Source: an uncultured Candidatus Peribacteria bacterium | Lineage (GTDB): Bacteria; Patescibacteriota; Gracilibacteria; Absconditabacterales; Absconditicoccaceae | Assembly: GCA_964483725.1 (NCBI GenBank) | Contig: CAZACQ010000003.1 | Span: 1-58,430, forward strand | Direction: 5' to 3' | DNA length: 58,430 bases | Shown here: positions 403-51,978 of the stretch, piece after piece | Numbering within the stretch: the first letter of the stretch is position 1 | How the letters are laid out: each line of letters starts with the position of its first letter | Made by a program: the position numbers and the translations under genes | Notes under the pieces: model-generated | Seen by the model: the letters and a program-made list of their open reading frames with translations, nothing else | Told to the model about the DNA's origin: nothing | Database searches by the model: none

Positions 403-440
403 TAAAAAAAACTCCTCCACTAGTATACTAGCAAAGGAGT
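403..440 (-). terminator. Rho-independent terminator of the GC-rich ORF
   Basis: The minus strand reads CTCC-TTTG-CTAGTATACTAG-T-GGAG followed by T8. The hairpin begins 15 nt after the TGA at 455..457. Confidence 0.6.
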
Positions 441-454
441 AAAATGTATATATC

Positions 455-727
455 TCACAAAGCAAGCGGGATTTTTTTGAATCCCGGCTTAATGCCCGTG
501 ATTTTGTTGATCATCCTGGCTGAGCTATCATTGCCAACCAGAATTCCTCCCGAATCACCACAGAATACTGGCATTCCTGCATTGTGCAGGAAATCACGAG
601 AAGCATTCCTCATCCTCCTCATGGAGAGGAATCTCTGGATGTCTTCAAAGGTGATATCACCTTCGAAGTGGTACACATAGGTGCATGCTTCCTTGCACGC
701 TGCATTGATTTCACGGAGATTATACAT
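455..727 (-). CDS. GC-rich, foreign-looking 90-aa protein of unknown function (standard-code stop TGA at 455; extends to TAG 428 under code 25)
   Basis: ATG at 727 is preceded by AGGAGG 6 nt upstream. There is no in-frame TGA and all 8 Gly use GGN. The ORF is visibly GC-rich compared with its flanks. Sequence: MYNLREINAACKEAC...GDSGGILVGNDSSARMINKITGIKPGFKKIPLAL. No family recognised. Confidence 0.6.
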   Translation of the reverse strand: MYNLREINAACKEACTYVYHFEGDITFEDIQRFLSMRRMRNASRDFLHNAGMPVFCGDSGGILVGNDSSARMINKITGIKPGFKKIPLAL

Positions 728-761
728 GACACACCTCCTGGTGTTTTGTGTAAGGATTTTT

Positions 762-789
762 CTTATAATTATTTTTTTCTAAAAGTCAA
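762..789 (-). promoter_or_regulatory. sigma70-like promoter for 455..727
   Basis: The minus strand has TTGACT (789..784), a 16-nt spacer and TATAAG (767..762). The SD AGGAGG lies at 739..734. Confidence 0.5.
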
Positions 790-860
790 ACATTTTTTAT
801 TTATAAAAATACAGGTTAAATATAATTAATATTTTATAAATATTAAAAACCAAGCACTAA

Positions 861-2333
861 TTATTTCAAAGATAAGTTTTGAAACATAGAGTATGAACTT
901 ATTTGTTCAGATAAATCAAGAATTTTTCAATAATATTGTTCTCATTCTGTATCATTTAGAAATTGTTTCCAATTTGTTCAATGATTTTGAAGTAATCTTC
1001 ATACCCTACCTTGTCATCTATTGTATGCAGTAAAAACTATATCATTTATATCATATTGATCAGAATTATAGTTTTCAAATTCTGAATACAAAAATAGTAC
1101 ATAATCAAGACCTCTTTCAATATTTTCTTTTGGATTAAAAGGATTAGTTGTCTTATCAAAAATATAATTAAACCTATCATCTCAATTTGTAGCATCTCTT
1201 CACATATAGATATTTTTAGTAGTTTGAGTTATTCATATCACTCAAGTATGAGAAATATTATAAGTTTGAAATTTAGACTCTAGCATTATCATTCAATTGA
1301 AAAGTTGGATAAATTCTCATATATCAATATATTGCTCAATTTCAGATCTCCTTGTATATATAGCATTTGTAATATAATCATTTAGTTCTAAATAGTTTTG
1401 AAATCAAACTTCATTAAAAGAATGTATTTGTTTCACTCTCAATCAAGAGATTAAATCATTTATAGATCTTTCTTTAGAAATTTCCAAAAACTCTTCTCAT
1501 GAAAGTGATGAAAAATAATCTCTAGATACATTTATCCTATGAAGTGTTGCTAAATTATCAAATAATTTTGATATATCATCATCATATCAAACAGAATAAT
1601 CTATTGTATTTGTCAAAGCATCTATTTCATTTACAATATATTCTCTTACATGATAAAGTGAATCTAATCATTTTATAGTATCAAGAGTTTCATTAAGCTT
1701 ATTTTCTAGTTTTTTTTGATATACTTCATCATCAAAATAAATAGGATTTATAGGATTACTACTATATTTAACAGTATTATCAATTGCATTCTTGAAAGCT
1801 TCAACATAATCTTGATTTATTTCAATTTGTGATTCTTTTTCATAATGACGATTATACATATCTATATTGATATCTTTATCAAAGTAATCATAAAAATATC
1901 AGTTGAAACTTGAATTATAATACAAAACATCTCATGGTAATACTAAGTTATTAGATCTTTGGAAATACAAATGTCATTCATTTAGATAAAGACCATTGGT
2001 GTTTAAAAATCTTTGTACTTCTCTTTCATCAGAACGAGATATACCAAATTGCCTTAAGATTTTATAAAATCAATCTCAATTTGAAACTTGATAAAATTCA
2101 AAATCATATATATTCAGATTAAACTCTTTGTAAGCATCTCTTTCTCTCAAAAATTCTTCATCCAATTGATAGTCATCAGTAGAATCATATCTTCATTGAT
2201 CTAATAAAGTTACAATATCATCACTTGTTTTTTTTGAAATTTCTGATACTCAATCTTTTTCTGGTCAGTCTGAACATCAAATTGATGTAGAAAGTACTCC
2301 TGCTGCCAAAATTCATTTTAGTTTTTGGTTCAT
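861..2333 (-). CDS. lipoprotein with C-terminal lytic transglycosylase (SLT/GH23-like) domain
   Basis: ATG 2333 to TAA 861 (490 aa). The N-terminus MNQKLKGILAAGVLSTSIGC carries a lipobox. The C-terminal SHTGVIGITQ ... AYNRGQGRV matches the SLT S..G..GLMQ and AYNAG motifs only when TGA is read as Gly. Confidence 0.7.
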
Positions 2334-2479
2334 TTTATTTACTATTTTTTTTGATAAATCTTGTTTTTATAAACAAATCTTGTACACAATCAAGTACAAT
2401 TTTATATAATTATTTGAAAAATTCAAATTTTAAGTTATAATATAATAGTTTATTTTATATTATATAAATAAAAATAATA

Positions 2480-3118
2480 ATGACAGAAGAAAACAAGAAT
2501 AAAACTAAAGAAAATAACGAAACAGAAGAAAATACAGCTAAATCATGAGATTGAGAAAAAAAACAAACTTGAAATTCTCAAAATGAGGACAATAAAATAA
2601 CACAAGAACACAAACAAAGAGTAATTAATGACCTAAAACAAACAGCAAAAGATATGCCTATGTTGGTAAGATGAGCATTCAAACCTGTAATTTCTTATGT
2701 AGAAAAAAAATATGAAAATATGCCTGAAGAGAAAAGAAAGCATTTAGAAAAAATGATAAATGATATCAAAAAAGAATCAAATAAATGAATATCACAAGTT
2801 AAAAGTATGGTTTCATGATTTTTTGCAAAATGACAAGAAAAAGCTGAGGAAGCAAAAGAAGAGATAAAAAAAGAAGCAGAAGACAAAAAAGAGAACCTAA
2901 AAGATAAGGTTGAAACTAAGAAAGAAGAAGTTGAACAAAAAGCAGAAAATTTTAAAGAAAAAGTTGAAGACAAAAAAGAAGAGACAAAAGAAAAAGTAGA
3001 ATCAAAAACAGAAGAACTAAAAGAAAAAGCAGAAAGCAAAAAAGATGAATTAGAAAGCAAAGTAGAAGAAAGAAAAAAGAAAGTTGAAGAAAAACTAAGT
3101 AAAGATGATGAAAGCTAA
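2480..3118 (+). CDS. Lys/Glu-rich coiled-coil repeat protein (LEA/apolipoprotein-like)
   Basis: ATG 2480 to TAA 3116..3118 (212 aa). The C-terminal half is made of repeated K.EE.KEK.E units. There are 7 in-frame TGA in the N-terminal half. The track ORF 2695..3060(-) is its antisense shadow. Confidence 0.65.
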
Positions 3119-3423
3119 AACTTATCTTTATATTTTTTGATAAAGAAATCTAAATTTGATATTTCATCATCTATTAGTGATTTATTCATATGAATATGTC
3201 AGCATTTTTGACATTCAAATTTTATTTTTATTTTTCAATTTGAAATTATATATTCCACAGGATACATATCTCAATAACATTCAGAAAGCCTGTCTCAAGG
3301 GAGTTTTTCATCTACATGCATACTAGCAAAACAATATGGACAATGATTTCTACAGGTTCATTTGGCTTTGGGCACTTCTTTTCAGCATTCAAAACAAATA
3401 AAAGATTCATTAATTTTTTTCAT
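3115..3423 (-). CDS. RNHCP domain-containing zinc-ribbon protein
   Basis: ATG 3423 to TAG 3115 (102 aa). It carries CFECGK ... GTCRNHCPYC. It converges on the previous gene with a 4-nt overlap. Confidence 0.75.
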
Positions 3424-3524
3424 ATGATATACTAAGAAAAAATAAATAAAGTTATAATAAAATATAGTATTGAATTCAAGAAGATATTTATTATAAAATA
3501 TAAATTTAAAAATAACCTTTTGCT

Positions 3525-5243
3525 ATGCTAAACTTTGAGAACTTGAAAAATTTACAAAAACACATTACTTACCTACAAGAAATTATACAAAAAGAAGACA
3601 TTTTTATAGTTTGATGATCTATTAGAGATATATTATTATGATTTGAAAAAGACCCCAAAGACATTGACATCACAGCAGGTTGAAACCCTCAAGATATTTA
3701 TGAAAAAATAAAAAAAGAAGATATTTCAATATTCAAAACGGATAAATTTGGTACTATCACTATAATACCAAAATCACAAAAGTCTATAGAAAAACTTCAA
3801 TATGAATTAACTCCACTAAGATCAGAATGAAATTATGAAGACTTTCGTCATCCTTGAGAGATAAATTGGACTAGTGATATTTTATTGGATAGCAAAAGAA
3901 GAGACTTTAGTATTAATTGTATTTATTATTACTACTGCCAAATAGATATCCAAACAGAATCTAGGAAAAAAATAAACAAAGAAAGTGAATTTCACAGAAT
4001 ATTGGATCATGAATGATATATCTTCCTAAGAGACAAGAACTGTTTGATCATCAAAGATAATGACACAATAGCAAAACTTTTTAATGATGCAAAACTTGAT
4101 AAAGATAAATTAAAAGAACTTACAAATAAGTGATATTTTTTGGATAATGATGAAAAATCAGGTTATTGAATACAAATAATAATTGACCCAGCTTGATGAA
4201 TGCAAGATTTGATAAGTAAGAAAATTAAGGCAGTATGAAATCCTGATGATAGATTCCAAGAAGATGCACTTAGAATTATTAGATGAGTAAGAATACCAAA
4301 TATTCTAAACCAGAAAATAGAAAAGAAATTTAAATCCGAATGATTGAAAGAATTAAAAACTTTTGATTATGATACACATACATGGAAAAGTATGAAAAAG
4401 AACTTTTTCTTAGTACAATTTATAGCAAAAGAAAGAGTCAAGGATGAAATAATGAAATCATTCAAAGCTAATAATCCTTTTGGATTTATAGTTTTATTAG
4501 ATGAATTAAATATTTTAAAATATTTGTTTCCAAGTTTTTATTTATGTAAGAATTCAGCACAACCTGTAAGATATCATGCATTAGATACTTTTGCTCATAC
4601 ACTAATGACATTTTACCATGTACAAAAAATAAATAAAGATACTATAGTAAGATTTGCTATGTTATATCATGATGTATGAAAACCTGATCAGTATTATTAT
4701 GCATCAATATGATTAGAAAAAGAAGAAATAAGAAAAATGCATGGAAGTTATGTAAATCATCCAATATCAGGTAAAGATATGGCAATAAAAGATTTCAAAG
4801 CTTTATGATTTTCAAAAAAAGAAGTAGAAGAAATATGATTTTATGTAAGAGAACACTTACTAATTTGAGAAGTTTTAAGTGCAAATGAAGAAAACATTCC
4901 CAAAAAAATAAAAAAACTACTATCAGAAATATGATACAAAAGACTATTGAATTTGGTAGACATATGCATAGCAGACAGACAATGACAGTACAATCCTCTA
5001 CAGTCAAGCAATATCCAACCACTTAAAAATCTAAAGAACTTGATAAAAGATATTTACAAAAAACAATGAGAATTTTCACAAAAAGATTTAGCAATAGATT
5101 GAAACGATATAATAAAAGAACTTGGAATACAAGCTTGACCAGAAGTTTGAAAAAAAATAAAAAAAGCCTTGGATTGGACGATCCAAGACATTAAAAATAG
5201 AAATAATAAAAAAGCTATTATAGATTTTCTAAAACAAAATTAA
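3525..5243 (+). CDS. cca: CCA-adding enzyme / poly(A) polymerase-family tRNA nucleotidyltransferase with HD domain
   Basis: ATG 3525 to TAA 5241..5243. The whole frame was checked codon by codon and is free of TAA/TAG (572 aa). Motifs are VGGSIRDILLG..DIDI, RRDFSINC and YHDVGKP (HD). Confidence 0.8.
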
Positions 5244-6342: not shown

Positions 6343-6558
6343 TTAATTATGTTTCCTAATAGACTGATAGTTTTTTTCAAATTTTTCTAAGTCTTTAGTA
6401 ATTTGTCCTTTACCTCCATCAGGTGTAGAAAAAACAAAAGACATTGTTTTCTTCATTTCATTAATCGAAGAATCAAGAGTATCTTTTATATTATCATATA
6501 AAGATTTTCTTGTTTTTGACTTTTTTAATTCTTGTTCTAATTCTTGTATTTTGGTCAT
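6343..6558 (-). CDS. small coiled-coil protein (71 aa)
   Basis: The ORF is intact in both codes, from ATG 6558 to TAA 6343. It starts 3 nt after the stop of 6561..7001, which suggests an operon. Confidence 0.55.
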   Translation of the reverse strand: MTKIQELEQELKKSKTRKSLYDNIKDTLDSSINEMKKTMSFVFSTPDGGKGQITKDLEKFEKNYQSIRKHN

Positions 6559-6560
6559 TA

Positions 6561-7001
6561 TTATATAACTATTCTATTAGTTGTAAAAACAAAAACTTCT
6601 ACTTTTCCAGATAAGTTATACTTCTTTTTAACCAAAGATAAAGCATGTTTTGCATCAGCAACTCATTCTATATTTGGAAGTATAGCTCAGGTATCATCCG
6701 AATCTTGGCAAATAAGAAAGAATCAATATTTTTGGGGATCAGTTTTGAGAATATCTTCAGGATTAGTAAGTTCTTGAATATTATCAACTACATCTATCAC
6801 TGTATATTTAAGTGACTTTTCATGATCTTCAACTACTCAACTATATAGTGAATCAATACATGAATCCAATTCATCTTCTGTGTAAACTACTCAATTCGAA
6901 AAAAGTTCTGTTAAATTTTCATCAAATCATGAAAAGAAAATTCATTTTTTCTCATCAGCTGAATAGTCTTTATAAAGTACTTCTTTTATTCTTTCTTTCA
7001 T
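6561..7001 (-). CDS. hypothetical protein (146 aa)
   Basis: ATG 7001 to TAA 6561 with 8 in-frame TGA. Sequence MKERIKEVLYKDYSADEKKGIFFSGFDENL... No family recognised. Confidence 0.55.
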
Positions 7002-7078
7002 ATTAGATTACTTATTAATAAATATAATTTTGTTTTATGATATATATTTGATAGTATTTTTCAAGATATTAATTATTA

Positions 7079-13388: not shown

Positions 13389-14189
13389 TTGGGGAAAGAA
13401 GATATAAACTTGATTGAAAAAAAACTAAACTGAATATTAAGAAAATACTGAATAGATAATGAAGAAATACTTGAAAATATACTAGAACAAATTACTTGAG
13501 TCGATATAACAGATAAAGAAATTGAAGATACAAAAGAAGAATTATCAAAATACGAATTTAAAATAAAAGAACTGAAGACACACTATGATAAATATAATAA
13601 ATTCCAAGAGAACTTAAACTCCATAAAAGTTAAAGAATATTTTGATGGATTTGAAGAAAAAATGAATGAAAATGATATAAACTGAAAGGCAGTATTAGAA
13701 GAAAATATTAAAAAGTGGAAAAATGAGATCAAAAAACTTGATTTAAATAATGAAAAAAAATACCTTAGTATTGATAAAATAAATGATTATCAAGATAAAT
13801 TAAGCTCACTAAAAGATAATTTAGCAAAAGAATACCTAAGTATTGAAAATGATCTAGAAAATATATTAGCTATCAAAAAAGAAATAGACAAGCATGAATA
13901 TAGTGCATCAGATACATTCTCTAGTATAGAAAGTAGAATAATAAAAGAAAATAATATATCTCAATCAAGTATTATTAATAAAGAAGTCCTTATTGAGGAA
14001 TTAAAAAATGAATTAAGAAAAAAATACAACAAATCAAGAAGATGAAACAATAGAATAAGTGTATCAACTAGAAGAAGATGAGTGTCTTGAAGAAGAAGAT
14101 CATGAGGATGAAGTAGAAGTAGGAGTAGATCTAGATGATGAGGAGGAGGAAGAAGAAGATGACGTTCATGAGGAAGAAGTAGATTTTAA
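13389..14189 (+). CDS. coiled-coil protein with Arg/Gly/Ser-rich C-terminal tail, putative TTG start
   Basis: It is in the same frame as 12831..13361. TTG 13389 (first in-frame ATG only at 13662) to TAA 14187..14189. The last ~50 aa read RRGNNRISVSTRRRGVSGRRRSGGGSRSRSRSRGGGGGRRRGRSGGRSRF. The end overlaps the convergent ABC gene by 4 nt. Confidence 0.45.
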
Positions 14190-22329: not shown

Positions 22330-22484
22330 AAAAAAACCAAGGAGCCGTGGAACTTAGTATCTCTACCCCCCTATAATACAAAGTGGATAGCTCGACCTTG
22401 GCAGGACCAAGATATACCGGCTTCCTGTATTAAAATTGATGTGGAGGAGATAAAGATAAGCTCACCAACCCCTCAGATTTTTAC
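22330..22484 (-). ncRNA. candidate structured ncRNA or leader (class unknown), GC-rich rod-like hairpin ending in U7
   Basis: It lies in the 237-nt dprA-atpB spacer. A ~140-nt core (22476..22337 on the minus strand) is much more GC-rich than its surroundings. It folds into one long irregular hairpin with about 11 G.U pairs, so the fold is specific to the minus strand. A possible TTGAAA-16-TATACA promoter lies at 22518..22491, and a U7 tract at 22336..22330. Confidence 0.5.
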
Positions 22485-39470: not shown

Positions 39471-41585
39471 ATGATAGAAAAATTACAAATAGAAGAAAAA
39501 AGCAAGAAATTTCTATGGGAATGAAAAAATTTTGAACTAAAAACATGAAAGTTAGCTAGTCAATCAGATTGATCAGTTGTTGTAAGTTTATGAGACACAT
39601 CATTATTAGTGACGGCAGTAATGAATGAAAGTCCTGATGAAGATAAGGATTTTATGCCACTTACTATAGATTGTAGGGAATCATTTTATGCAGCATGAAA
39701 AATTTGATGAGCAATATATATTAGAAGAGAATGAAAACCATCAGAAAGAACAGTCTTAGTTTCTAGACTTACTGACAGACCTATAAGACCTATGTTCCCT
39801 GAAGGTATGATAAACGATGTAGTGATTACAATAACTCCCCTAAGTGTAGATAAAGAAAATTCAATGTGAGTACCAAGTATAATATGAGCAAGTGCAGCTT
39901 TAAAAATGGCATGAATACCTTTTGAATGACCAGTATGAGCAGTTAAAATTTGATACAAAGATTGAGATTTTATAGTAAACCCTACATACAGTGAGGTTAA
40001 TGAATGAACACTAGAATTAACATTAGCTGGAACAGAAGACACTATTACTATGGTTGAATGTTGAGCAAAGGAAATACCTGAAGATATCCTTATAGAAGCA
40101 TTTAAAATATGACAAGAAGAAATAAAAAAAATTTGTAGTAAACAAAAAGAATTTTTGGAAAAATTTGAAATTGAAGAAAGAGAGATAAAAACAAATAAAC
40201 CAAGTGAAGATTTAATTTCATATATAAAACAATTAATTGATAAAGAAAGCTTGGAGGGTCTTATACCAAGTTGAAAAAAGGAATTTAACAAAAAGATTGA
40301 TAAAATAGAAGAAAAAGTATTATCTTTAGTAAATGAAAAAATTGAAGATAAAGAAAATAATATATTTACAAAATCAAAAGTAAATTCAGCTTTATTTAAA
40401 ATAGTAAAAGAATTCATTAGAGATAAAATATTAAACAAAGAACAAAGAGTTGACTGAAGAGAATTAAATCAGATAAGACCACTTTATTGTGAAGTTTGAC
40501 TAAATAGTAGAATACATTGAATATGATTATTCCAAAGATGAGAGACACAAGTATTTTCAGCAACTACTCTAGGTGCACCATGAGATGTACTATTGGTTGA
40601 TGATATGGAGTCAGATGCTGAGGAAGTTAGGTTTATGCATCATTATAACATGCCAGCATTTAGTACAAATGAAGCAAGACCTTCAAGAGCTGCTAGTAGA
40701 AGAGAAATATGACATTGAAAACTTGCAGAAAAAGCAATACTACCTGTATTACCCAATGAAGAAGATTTTCCATATACATTAAGAGTTGTTAGTGAAGTAT
40801 TTTCTTGTAACTGATCAACATCTATGGCAAGTGTATGTGCAAGTACATTATCTTTAATGGATGCATGAGTTCCTATTAAAAATCCTGTTAGCTGAATTGC
40901 TATGTGACTAGTAAGCGATTGAGAAAATTATAAAATTTTAACAGATATACAGTGAGTTGAAGATTTTACATGAGATATGGATTTTAAGGTTGCATGAACT
41001 AAAGAATGAATAACTGCACTTCAAATGGATATGAAAATAAAATGATTAAAAATGTCAGTTATTAAAGAAGCTATTTCTACAGCAAACAAAGCTAGATGAG
41101 ATATACTAGATTTTATGTTAGAAACTATTGATAAACCATCAGAAGAATTAAGTATACATGCACCTAAGATAACTACAATAAAATTGAAGCCTAGTCAAGT
41201 TAGAGAAGTTATTTGATCTTGATGAGCTAATATCAATGAAATAACTAAACAAACTTGAGTTAAAATAGACTTTAAAGAAGATTGAACTACAATAATTACA
41301 GCTAAAGACTCTGAATCAGAAAAACATGCAATCAAAATGATAAAAGATAGTACTTGGAACCCTGAAGTATGACAAGTTATAGAAGGTACAATAAATAGAG
41401 TTGAACAATATTGATTATTTGTAGAAGTATGAAAATGAAAAACATGACTTTGTCATGTAAAAAACTTATGAAAATGATTTATAAGTGACCCTAAAACACA
41501 GTACAAAGAGTGACAAAAAATTAGAGTTAAAATAATAGGTATAGATGAAAATAGTTGAAAAATTGAATTGAGGAAAGAAGAGTAA
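39471..41585 (+). CDS. pnp: polyribonucleotide nucleotidyltransferase (PNPase)
   Basis: ATG 39471 to TAA 41583..41585 (704 aa). Motifs are [30 protein letters not shown]...[11 protein letters not shown] and [14 protein letters not shown]. The C-terminal KH+S1 region contains [21 protein letters not shown]. Confidence 0.9.
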
Positions 41586-50328: not shown

Positions 50329-51978
50329 CTATTTATCATCATTAGAAATAGATTCAAATTTAGAATAAAGTAATATAAGCATAATCTTAGTTAGAGGAAC
50401 AACAACAGTAAGTATAAGCATTATATTAACTAACATCATAGTACCAAATCACCTAAATATATTAGTTCAAACCATAAATAATAAAAGTCAAATTAATCAA
50501 GTTGTAAGATTACCATCTCTAATAGCAGACAAACTCCTAGCAAATCAATCTTGAATTGAAAGCATCGTTCACTTTCAAGACTTCATTTCTTCTCTAACTC
50601 TTTCAAAAATAAGCACATTAGCATCTACTGCAATTCATATACTCAAAATTATAGCAGCTATTCAACTTAATGATAAAGCATATCAAAGTACTTTTATCAA
50701 TCAAAATAAAATTGATACAAAAACCAAAAGAGTCGTTATAGCAACTAATCACTTAACTAATCAATAAAAATATATCATAAATAAGAATACAAGAAAAAAT
50801 CAAACTGCAGCAGCAATAATTGCAGCACTTAAAGCATCAGCTCAAAGAGTTGGCGAAACCATTTCCTCATGAGATAATATTAATGGAGCTGGCATAGCTC
50901 AATCATTTAAATCATCAACCATTTCTCTAGCTTCAGTACGAGTGAAATTTCAAGTAATTTGAGATGTTCATCAACATATTTCTTCCCTTATAACAGGATC
51001 AGTTATAAGTTCTCATCAAACAAATATTGCCATTTGTTCTCAGACATTTTGAGAAGTTATATTACAGTATATTTGAGCTCACTGCCTATTGAAATGAACT
51101 AATACACTAGGATCTCAAGTCTCAGTTGTTCAAACACTAGCATAATTAAAAAAGGCAGCATTAAGCATTTGTCAACTAGCTGGATCAGTAGCTGTCACCC
51201 AAGTTGGAAAGTAAGATATAGAAAGCACCTCAAAAGAATATATATCTTCTTCTTGTCATAAATATCTAACTATATCCCATCTTTCTTCTTCATCATTAGA
51301 TAGCAAACTAGGATATATATTACCTTCTCATGCTTCAATTAAGGAATCAAAATTATCTTGTAAAAATGATGGAAGATCATCAATTTCAGAGTCATAATTA
51401 TTATAATGATAATCATTATCGATATTATCTTGATATATTTCAGCAAGAGATAATTCATCATTTACAGTTGAAATCAAAGCTTCTTCTGCTAAAACTTTCC
51501 TAGAATCTCTAACTTCTTCTTCATCCTCTCATTCATATTTTAATTTGAATTCTAACTCAACTGTCCTTCATATAATATCTTTTGCTGCATCAGTATCTAC
51601 AACTCAACCAATTTCAACAACTACATAATCATCCTGTCAAATAGATTGAATATAACTTGTATAATCACTTACTCAAAGTGCAGAAATTCTATCATCAATA
51701 TTCGAAAGTATTATTCACTCTATTTCAGATTTAATTTCATTAAGCTCAGCTTGATCAGTATAAATTTCTTCATACCTTGAATAATCAATTCTATATGTAA
51801 GCCTAACTCATCAAGCAACATCTAGTCACTTTTTAAAACCCTGCAATCACTGACTTGTAATTGTCATTGATTCTTCTCAAGTATCTTCATCAAAATCAAT
51901 ACCAACAAAAAATATTAAAAATAAAGATACAAGAAAAATTATAAGATATAAAAAAAATGATTTAGCAACTCAGTACAT
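50329..51978 (-). CDS. secD: protein translocase subunit SecD
   Basis: ATG 51978 to TAG 50329 (549 aa). Motifs are GLDVAGGVRLTY, AIFVGGELITDPVIRE.I.GG.SQITGNFT..EA, GAMPAPL and SGIAAIILSIGIAVDANVLIFERVREE. Confidence 0.85.

Follow-up and report, generated by a model that had tools for sequence, protein, structure and literature searches.

The stretch of DNA described here, hereafter called the window, comprises 58,430 nucleotides (nt) of contig CAZACQ010000003.1 from an uncultured Candidatus Peribacteria bacterium (assembly GCA_964483725.1). Close to its first position lies an island rich in guanine and cytosine (GC) that holds one gene on the minus strand. The gene encodes a small basic protein of a family for which DNA was retrieved from the loci L001 (identical to the window), L002/L003, L004/L005, L006, L007, L008, L009, L010, and L011. 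Four traits were shown to be common to the family genes and absent from their neighbors: a strong Shine–Dalgarno (SD) sequence; a frame free of TGA, the codon that the hosts read as glycine; a raised synonymous GC content together with a structured mRNA; and −35/−10 boxes and a terminator of their own.

The cassette and the code of its host

The island had been described in an earlier note on this DNA, and sliding-window analysis bears the description out: 150-nt windows between positions 451 and 750 have a GC content of 0.46–0.48, both flanks of 0.12–0.25, and the window overall of 25%. Herein lies an open reading frame (ORF) of 90 codons, which is preceded by AGGAGG and followed by a hairpin with a run of eight T, as had been claimed; sequence reading and a terminator scan agree on this arrangement. 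The claimed promoter stands in part. Its boxes TTGACT and TATAAG, 16 nt apart, are present, but the scanner did not list them, since its rule demands T as the final base of the −10 box. Boxes of the form TTGAC(A/T)-16/17-TA-rich are located upstream of most relatives read, with L011 having TTGCAT at −35. Every copy with enough flanking sequence constitutes its own transcription unit, composed of promoter-like boxes and an intrinsic terminator 14–40 nt past the terminal codon (14 nt to the stem in the window). This range leaves out L008, the contig of which stops 21 nt beyond its TAA. All coordinates are compiled in Table 1.

With TAA and TAG as the only stops, the window is densely covered by long ORFs, in which TGA makes up ~5% of all codons and 81–82% of the glycine codons. 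In the CCA-adding enzyme, the conserved GGxxRD motif reads TGA-TGA-TCT-ATT-AGA-GAT; hence, TGA stands for glycine in this host, as in code 25. The gene prfB is absent from every Gracilibacteria genome examined, meaning that release factor 2 (RF2) is missing in these lineages (PMC6851277). The hosts of the relatives are recoded as well: at loci with enough sequence, TGA accounts for 3–6% of codons and 63–91% of glycine codons. It is used inside conserved genes at every locus with a neighboring gene (RecA, DnaN, MutL, Mur ligase, and PriA-like), and the MutL motifs at these loci spell glycine as TGA. The GC content is 21–33% for loci of at least 2 kb and 33–35% for two contigs of less than 1 kb.

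The family gene departs from this usage. All eight glycines of the window ORF are encoded by GGN, and none of its in-frame codons is TGA, as had been noticed before; nine TGAs occur out of frame. Among nine members, 52 of 52 glycine codons are GGN, and 82 TGAs lie out of frame compared with none in frame, which makes the avoidance specific to the reading frame. At host codon usage, the probability of a TGA-free frame is 1.8e-6 for the window, 8.3e-8 for L006, 1.9e-2 for L002, and 1.6e-2 for L004. If these four lineages are taken as independent, the product amounts to ~5e-17 by our own arithmetic. GC content is not the cause, since L006 has near-host codon usage (GC content at third codon positions, GC3, without glycine of 0.14 versus 0.07 in the host), yet seven of its seven glycines are GGN, although its host writes 90% of glycines as TGA. 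High expression and small gene size were also ruled out as causes, since all neighboring genes use TGA, including those for ribosomal protein L25, RecA, and GreA and ORFs of 58–109 amino acids (aa). Nor is the avoidance an artifact of gene calling under code 11, because most family loci were called with a recoded table. The statement that the gene differs from its neighbors in this respect likewise holds: no other plausible gene in the window is both TGA-free and equipped with several GGN codons. A separate 71-codon ORF directly after gene 6561–7007 has three GGN glycines, no TGA, no SD sequence, and ordinary AT-rich codons; its TGA-free state may be chance (P ~0.007). A chromosomal gene family in bacteria with TGA as glycine is, thus, apparently kept free of the reassigned codon by selection.

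The same genes differ in their leaders. Neither the 44 long ORFs of the window nor 49 neighboring genes in L002, L004, L006, and L007 have an SD core upstream. Instead, these genes have A/T-rich leaders, as in Bacteroidia, and judged from the window and the four loci, the host genomes appear to be without SD sites altogether. All family members carry GGAGG, AGGAG, or AAGGA a few to ~12 nt ahead of ATG, the AAGGA of L011 being weaker.

Table 1. Features of the cassette, of the remaining window, and of the homologous loci (window coordinates unless a locus is named; UTR, untranslated region)
Feature	Position	Strand	Remarks
GC-rich island	434..771	none	100-nt windows, maximum 0.49; 46-48% GC versus 25% in the genome
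-35 box TTGACT	784..789	-	read from sequence
-10 box TATAAG	762..767	-	after a 16-nt spacer; 5/6 matches, final base G instead of T
Small 5'-UTR hairpin ACACC-AGGA-GGUGU	731..744	-	stem contains the final two G of the SD sequence
SD sequence AGGAGG	734..739	-	6 nt ahead of ATG; read from sequence
Start codon ATG	725..727	-	read from sequence
ORF, 90 sense codons	458..727	-	conserved small basic α/β protein (predicted fold); translation MYNLREINAAC...KKIPLAL*
SD-like run AGGAGGATGAGGAATG inside a predicted hairpin	582-626	-	within the ORF, codons of the conserved Arg-rich motif SMRRMRN
Terminal TGA	455..457	-	stop in the standard code, Gly in the host code; relatives have TGA, TAA, or TAG there
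Read-through extension DIYILLLC + TAG	428..454	-	TAG 430..428, within the terminator stem
Ends of the two possible products			read-through peptide spans ...PLALGDIYILLLC; product ending at UGA ends ...KKIPLAL
Intrinsic terminator	403..440	-	13-bp stem 440..411 + T8 410..403; terminator scan, shuffles give 0.2 sites
Predicted long-range helix	3' arm GAGAUAUAUACAU 444..456 with start-codon region AUGUAUAAUCUC 727..716	-	closes the whole coding region; prediction
Upstream neighbor, lipoprotein-like	861-2366	-	~490 aa, C-terminal SLT lytic transglycosylase domain
RNHCP-domain zinc-ribbon protein, small	3115-3522	-	PF12647, E = 1.2e-23; divergent from the CCA-adding enzyme gene
CCA-adding enzyme	3525-5243		GGxxRD motif with TGA
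71-codon ORF	6343-6558	-	TGA-free
6S (SsrS) RNA gene	22330-22482	-	Rfam RF00013, 51.1 bits, E = 2.6e-7
Lesser GC-rich patches	14064-14186, 40524-40707, 50798-50908		inside long ORFs; up to 0.42 in 100-nt windows
Palindrome GTCAATTTTGAC	L004 7994-8005, L007 7972-7983, L009 150-161, L010 1356-1367		between promoter and SD sequence
priA-like gene	L004 6901-7896, L005 298-1293, L006 147-1145, L007 6879-7874, L008 2-787	all -	331-332 aa; truncated to 262 aa in L008, where the contig ends
HicA_toxin-domain protein	L002 4605-7361	-	918 aa, near the family gene

Coding evidence, synonymous GC content, and mRNA structure

A GC-rich island in an AT-rich genome classically denotes a structured RNA. A known noncoding RNA was the first suspicion here, given the island itself, a fold z-score of −8, and the 6S RNA gene as the sole comparable GC island elsewhere in the 58 kb. 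It was dropped after the searches and the codon-position test. No Rfam 15 family was matched at its gathering score, and a limit of E ≤ 10 brought up only weak matches that scored far lower than this; ARAGORN gave no match in the island. Between L004 and L007, 7, 5, and 32 differences fall on codon positions 1, 2, and 3, respectively, with 24 synonymous and 11 nonsynonymous codon changes. An excess of third-position substitutions is observed in 10 of 10 pairs tested, the amino acid replacements are conservative, and the reading frame is open in all family members. By this substitution pattern, the ORF was shown to be protein-coding and under purifying selection.

The family as a whole retains a high synonymous GC content and an unusual degree of mRNA structure. 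GC3 of the family genes amounts to 0.20–0.53 compared with 0.07–0.13 in their hosts. For the window gene, the GC content is 0.46 versus 0.25 and the nonglycine GC3 0.53 versus 0.13; hence, its composition and codon usage are unlike those of the host. In one clade, GC3 holds at 0.34–0.46 (host ~0.1), although 51–63 of 96 third positions differ, i.e., near saturation. Folding of the coding sequences alone yields z-scores of −5.6, −4.6, −3.0, −2.0, and −1.9, as opposed to ~0 for control gene pieces; for the whole transcript of the window, the values are −8.0 in sense and −4.9 in antisense. In the predicted full-length folds, the SD sequence and/or the AUG are mostly paired, with partners that differ by clade, and this modeled pairing hints at translational control. 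A shared RNA architecture across clades was rejected, as the folds of minimum free energy (MFE) differ and RNAalifold finds no net covariation.

The structure of the message could also mean that the island is a structured noncoding RNA gene with an incidental ORF. Besides the strongly negative z-scores in the window and negative ones in all relatives, this explanation draws on the likeness to the 6S RNA island, on the predicted 12-bp helix that links the start and stop regions, and on one hairpin inside the coding sequence with several two-sided changes. However, the empty Rfam search, the ORF that is open in all members with its third-position bias and conservative replacements, a confident protein model, and the absence of net covariation or of an architecture common to the clades all speak against it. 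The explanation is highly improbable; an RNA-only gene is excluded by the coding signal, whereas a second, RNA-level role, as in the softer version of a dual-function RNA, is possible.

Several local elements were seen beside these. The position in the L004 group that matches the SMRRMRN hairpin of the window is likewise a hairpin, GAAGTTTCGTTCTGAACGAAAACTTC, in which L009 and L010 carry several two-sided changes. A palindrome is conserved between promoter and SD sequence in L004, L007, L009, and L010, and the version in L008, ~30 nt ahead of ATG, is GTCATTTTTGAC; in this group, the palindrome could be an operator or a 5′ stabilizing hairpin. Lesser GC-rich patches occur inside three stretches of long ORFs of the window (Table 1).

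The protein family, its distribution, and its descent

An exhaustive HMMER search covered 1.84 billion representative proteins and returned eight matches at E ≤ 0.001, six of which form the family, i.e., the query and five homologs of 92–141 aa (best E 8e-13). A few additional members were contributed by two profile searches that covered 5.8 billion proteins, and a word-indexed protein search with the single sequence returned the query alone. Between clades, pairwise tblastn gives 1e-8 to 1e-27. The C termini assigned by gene callers vary with the code table, resulting in 90 aa, 99 aa, or, for relatives, 128–142 aa. Pfam, PHROGs, and NCBIfam contain no family match, and the anti-phage defense hidden Markov models of PADLOC gave none either (best E-value of 0.013, for one member only). 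The protein family is new.

The family proteins are basic, with isoelectric points of 8.9–10.3. AlphaFold2 on nine sequences predicts a compact α/β domain with a predicted local distance difference test score of 88.4 and a predicted template modeling score of 0.80. Foldseek against PDB and BFVD found nothing below E = 0.1, the best PDB match having E = 0.15. When the family profile was compared with PDB sequences, residues 86–176 of the uridine monophosphate kinase 3ek5_A were matched with a borderline E = 2.7e-4, and other such kinases more weakly. The family would cover the central segment of this enzyme (PyrH), with the N- and C-terminal nucleotide-binding parts absent. This weak lead was rejected, because the aligned kinase helix corresponds to a strand and loop in the predicted model and because no kinase appears among the Foldseek matches.

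Members of the family occur in six or more clades of recoded bacteria. All members with readable DNA context reside in AT-rich genomes in which TGA makes up 3–6% of codons, and relatives in at least eight other assemblies show the same cassette of promoter, SD sequence, ORF, and terminator inside AT-rich recoded DNA. For locus scans, alignment A3 was too diverse, and a narrower alignment yielded one extra locus, L010. Searches with the 90-aa protein yielded no relatives in GTDB species genomes or JGI metagenomes, and none turned up in 50,697 phage records, in 72,556 plasmids, or, over four scans, in IMG/VR. As far as sampled, the family is confined to AT-rich bacteria of the code-25 type, with TGA as glycine.

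In L004–L008, the family gene is oriented head-to-head with a 331-aa priA-like gene. Identities of the family protein and of the priA-like protein follow the same rank order (89/89, 72/47, and 54/36%), and because these ranks agree, vertical descent is assigned to this group; at the level of such comparisons, the family gene was shown to be vertically inherited there. In L009 and L010, the available upstream sequence is too short to show the priA-like gene. Both carry the palindrome in the 5′-UTR; L009 retains the downstream Mur-ligase gene, and the start of the downstream ORF in L010 resembles the Mur-ligase start of L009. The copies of the window and L002 are located elsewhere, away from the priA-like gene. 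No flanking repeats or mobile-element ends were found at these two copies, where only low-complexity AT matches occur, and no mobility genes. All in all, the neighbors of family genes are dnaN, priA-like, recA, Mur ligase, greA, and the SLT protein, which does not correspond to a phage genome or prophage.

Some of these neighbors merit a description of their own. The priA-like protein consists of the C-terminal half of PriA only (PF18319 zinc ribbon and helicase C region), and its gene adjoins dnaN in L004 and L007. It could represent a reduced PriA and is possibly linked in function to the small family protein. The HicA_toxin-domain protein of L002 is unusually large for HicA. In the window, the SLT neighbor has no relatives in GTDB species genomes by pattern scan and synteny search, and farther along lies a small zinc-ribbon gene (Table 1).

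The earlier note had read the standard-code look of the gene as the sign of a recent transfer from a standard-code donor, i.e., a bacterium, plasmid, or phage, with a sequence that is still unadapted to the host. It had also named an assembly chimera as a source of the same picture. The abrupt change of composition at both edges would suit a chimera or a contaminant fragment. However, L001 and the window match without a difference from the SLT gene over the island, right junction included, to ~16 nt past the T-run on the left, and the same cassette design recurs in AT-rich recoded DNA of the at least eight other assemblies. The probability of an artifact is practically negligible.

Recent transfer would account for the deviant GC content (46 versus 25%) and nonglycine GC3 (0.53 versus 0.13), for the SD sequence, the TGA-free frame, and the TGA “stop”, and for the copies in the window and L002 that do not adjoin the priA-like gene. 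Against it stand the searches, in which no standard-code homolog was found in the 1.84 billion representatives, GTDB genomes, phage records, plasmids, or IMG/VR, and the contexts, every readable one of which is a recoded genome. Moreover, the traits persist over clades that are only 30–45% identical and through saturated synonymous sites, and the family gene codiverges with the neighboring priA-like gene. Transfer of this kind is, thus, very unlikely. Orthologs in other code-25 genomes, with similar GC content and with internal TGA codons, had been proposed as the mark of a native gene. Such orthologs with raised GC content exist, and therefore, the gene is regarded as native; they too lack internal TGA, which makes the standard-code look a conserved trait rather than a relic of a donor. 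In summary, the descriptive core of the earlier interpretation (standard-code look and own promoter, SD sequence, and terminator) was right, and its causal reading found no support.

Terminal codons and a proposed mode of translation

The terminal codon varies among clades. It is TGA in three of them, namely the window, L011, and the clade of L004, L005, L007, L009, L010, and P0009, whereas L002 has TAG and L006 and L008 have TAA. The sequence beyond TGA is unconserved, and its frame changes between L004 and L007. Under the host code, GDIYILLLC is added in the window, and the frame stops nine codons on at a TAG within the terminator stem, which agrees with what had been read from the translation before. 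In L004, L007, L009, and L010 (P0007 clade) and in L011, no in-frame TAA or TAG lies ahead of the T-run of the terminator; because the T-run precedes any such codon, their terminated transcripts would be non-stop mRNAs under code 25. L002 and L006 show the ordinary order of TAG or TAA followed by the terminator.

Such terminal codons bring to mind phages. Phages predicted to infect Gracilibacteria and Absconditabacteria lack in-frame TGA and have TGA stops backed by nearby stops (PMC10746230), and the window has its back-up TAG nine codons on. The family could, thus, be a gene domesticated from the code-11-compatible phages or mobile elements of these bacteria, with phage-style signals kept by ongoing exchange or coexpression; one example would be a defense or anti-defense gene that has to be translated once a phage has silenced the TGA-dependent translation of the host. 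Its layout of promoter, gene, and terminator with odd GC content is moron-like. Contrary to this origin, no homolog was found in the 50,697 phage records, IMG/VR, or plasmids, the loci contain no integrase genes, phage genes, or flanking repeats, and there is no PADLOC match. In addition, the position is stable, the gene codiverges with its neighbor, and the largest clade has no back-up stop before the terminator. We consider this origin unlikely.

Taken together, the island probably represents a genuine, native, monocistronic gene for a basic α/β protein of ~90 aa that is kept translatable without TGA decoding and is SD-initiated. Its mRNA would be built for translation independent of both host peculiarities, and selection would keep the message so. 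Initiation would occur through SD/anti-SD pairing instead of the SD-independent route of the host, and decoding to the end of the conserved domain would need no tRNA-Gly(UCA). The protein may then be made, or made preferentially, when normal host translation is altered. Candidate states are an impaired decoding of UGA and, in parallel to rpsU of Bacteroidia, an anti-SD that is free on the ribosome. Avoidance of TGA would suit a product that is needed whatever the state of UGA decoding, a process that may come under attack. In-frame TGA is avoided by most predicted phages of Gracilibacteria (PMC10746230), and for this reason, any block of UGA reading would leave them unaffected.

The terminal codon might add a further layer. 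In the window, the host would read the terminal UGA as glycine, giving rise to a 99-aa product with a hydrophobic tail. In the P0007 clade and L011, the product would arise from non-stop mRNA, and its level could depend on trans-translation and on the efficiency of UGA decoding, comparable to brfA/arfA. A terminal UGA with a terminator within the frame may, thus, let the protein level report either of these two processes.

Several points weigh against this interpretation. The family comprises about a dozen clusters, i.e., its sampling is thin, and short contigs called with code 11 could conceal members that carry TGA. The purpose of the traits is inferred only. At the RNA level, the clades have different MFE folds, and for four sequences, RNAalifold yields no net covariation (+0.25 kcal/mol). 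No rRNA, and hence no 16S anti-SD of the host, is contained in the window. Finally, because three clades end in TAA or TAG, regulation by read-through or non-stop translation is not a general rule but at most a lineage-specific layer.

A different purpose for the same design would be expression in another cell, namely a standard-code, SD-using host or prey cell into which an epibiont or predator delivers DNA or a stable, structured mRNA. One cause would herein cover all anomalies: the consensus −35 box, the SD sequence, the TGA-free frame, the TGA in place of a stop with its close terminator and no back-up stop, the GC-richer codons, and the very stable mRNA. If true, the cassette would be a bacterial counterpart of T-DNA genes, which bear the signals of the recipient. 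However, no transfer apparatus, border repeats, or oriT occur near the family loci, codon usage of L006 is near that of its host, and the protein has no signal of effector function. No such delivery of genes or mRNA is known in symbioses between bacteria, and with its low prior probability, this purpose is very unlikely.

For the native gene that we favor, no description was found in the literature of a code-25 chromosomal family in which the reassigned codon is avoided and which alone is SD-led. Codon reassignment is usually considered to affect the whole genome and to hinder gene exchange, and the family appears to be an exception inside a recoded chromosome. It, thus, offers a handle on three questions: whether a functional anti-SD is kept in these uncultured bacteria and for what; whether UGA decoding is ever off or limiting, e.g., through TGA-avoiding phages; and whether regulation by UGA or by non-stop translation occurs in a cell without RF2.

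Comparison with known systems

Phage morons are units of promoter, gene, and terminator with a composition unlike that of their neighbors. The family gene resembles them as an autonomous transcription unit with deviant GC content but is not part of a prophage, and its place is conserved over long divergence. Closer in coding are the code-11-compatible genes that Liu et al. (mBio 2023) described in phages predicted to infect Gracilibacteria and Absconditabacteria (PMC10746230). Both are workable in the two codes, lacking in-frame TGA and permitting TGA as the terminal codon, which is followed by TAG nine codons later in the window. In contrast to the phage genes, the family gene is chromosomal, syntenic, vertically inherited, and single, it has no phage homolog among the records searched, and in the P0007 clade and L011, it has no back-up stop before the terminator.

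For non-stop translation, the counterparts are brfA of B. subtilis and arfA of E. coli, which encode small proteins from non-stop mRNAs and are held low by tmRNA tagging (PMC6881298). In brfA, a terminator inside the ORF creates the non-stop mRNA, the product of which is destroyed by way of tmRNA tagging unless rescue capacity is short (PMC6881298). Likewise, the frames of the P0007 clade and L011 cross an intrinsic terminator before any UAA or UAG under code 25. There is, however, no homology; the family protein is predicted to be a 90-aa globular domain and not a short tail-binding peptide. Moreover, three clades have an ordinary TAA or TAG, the TAG of the window lies within the terminator stem, and these lineages lack RF2 (PMC6851277), with which ArfA and BrfA act in partnership.

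With respect to initiation, the family gene is most comparable to rpsU, the gene of ribosomal protein bS21. Ribosomes of Bacteroidia are SD-blind, since bS21, bS18, and bS6 mask the anti-SD; in Flavobacteriia/Bacteroidia, rpsU is the lone gene with a strong SD sequence and is translated by ribosomes lacking bS21, which results in autoregulation (PMC7797042, PMC9976891, PMC13000453). Among the 44 ORFs of the window and the 49 neighboring genes, the family gene is likewise the sole or rare SD-led gene in SD-less surroundings. The likeness extends to the A/T-rich leaders of the host genes and to one small basic protein gene, the SD sequence of which is conserved across lineages. It ends at the protein, which is similar to bS21 neither in Pfam or NCBIfam nor in fold, being predicted as α/β, and at the code, as Bacteroidia are not recoded and offer no parallel to the avoidance of TGA. 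In Gracilibacteria and Absconditabacteria, bS21 is often missing, and only some Parcubacteria are reported to have lost the anti-SD (PMC9297842); for both reasons, a special SD-dependent circuit is plausible. By analogy, and given the frequent absence of bS21 (PMC9297842), it is conceivable that the family protein is a nonhomologous stand-in for bS21 with a putative role in ribosome binding.

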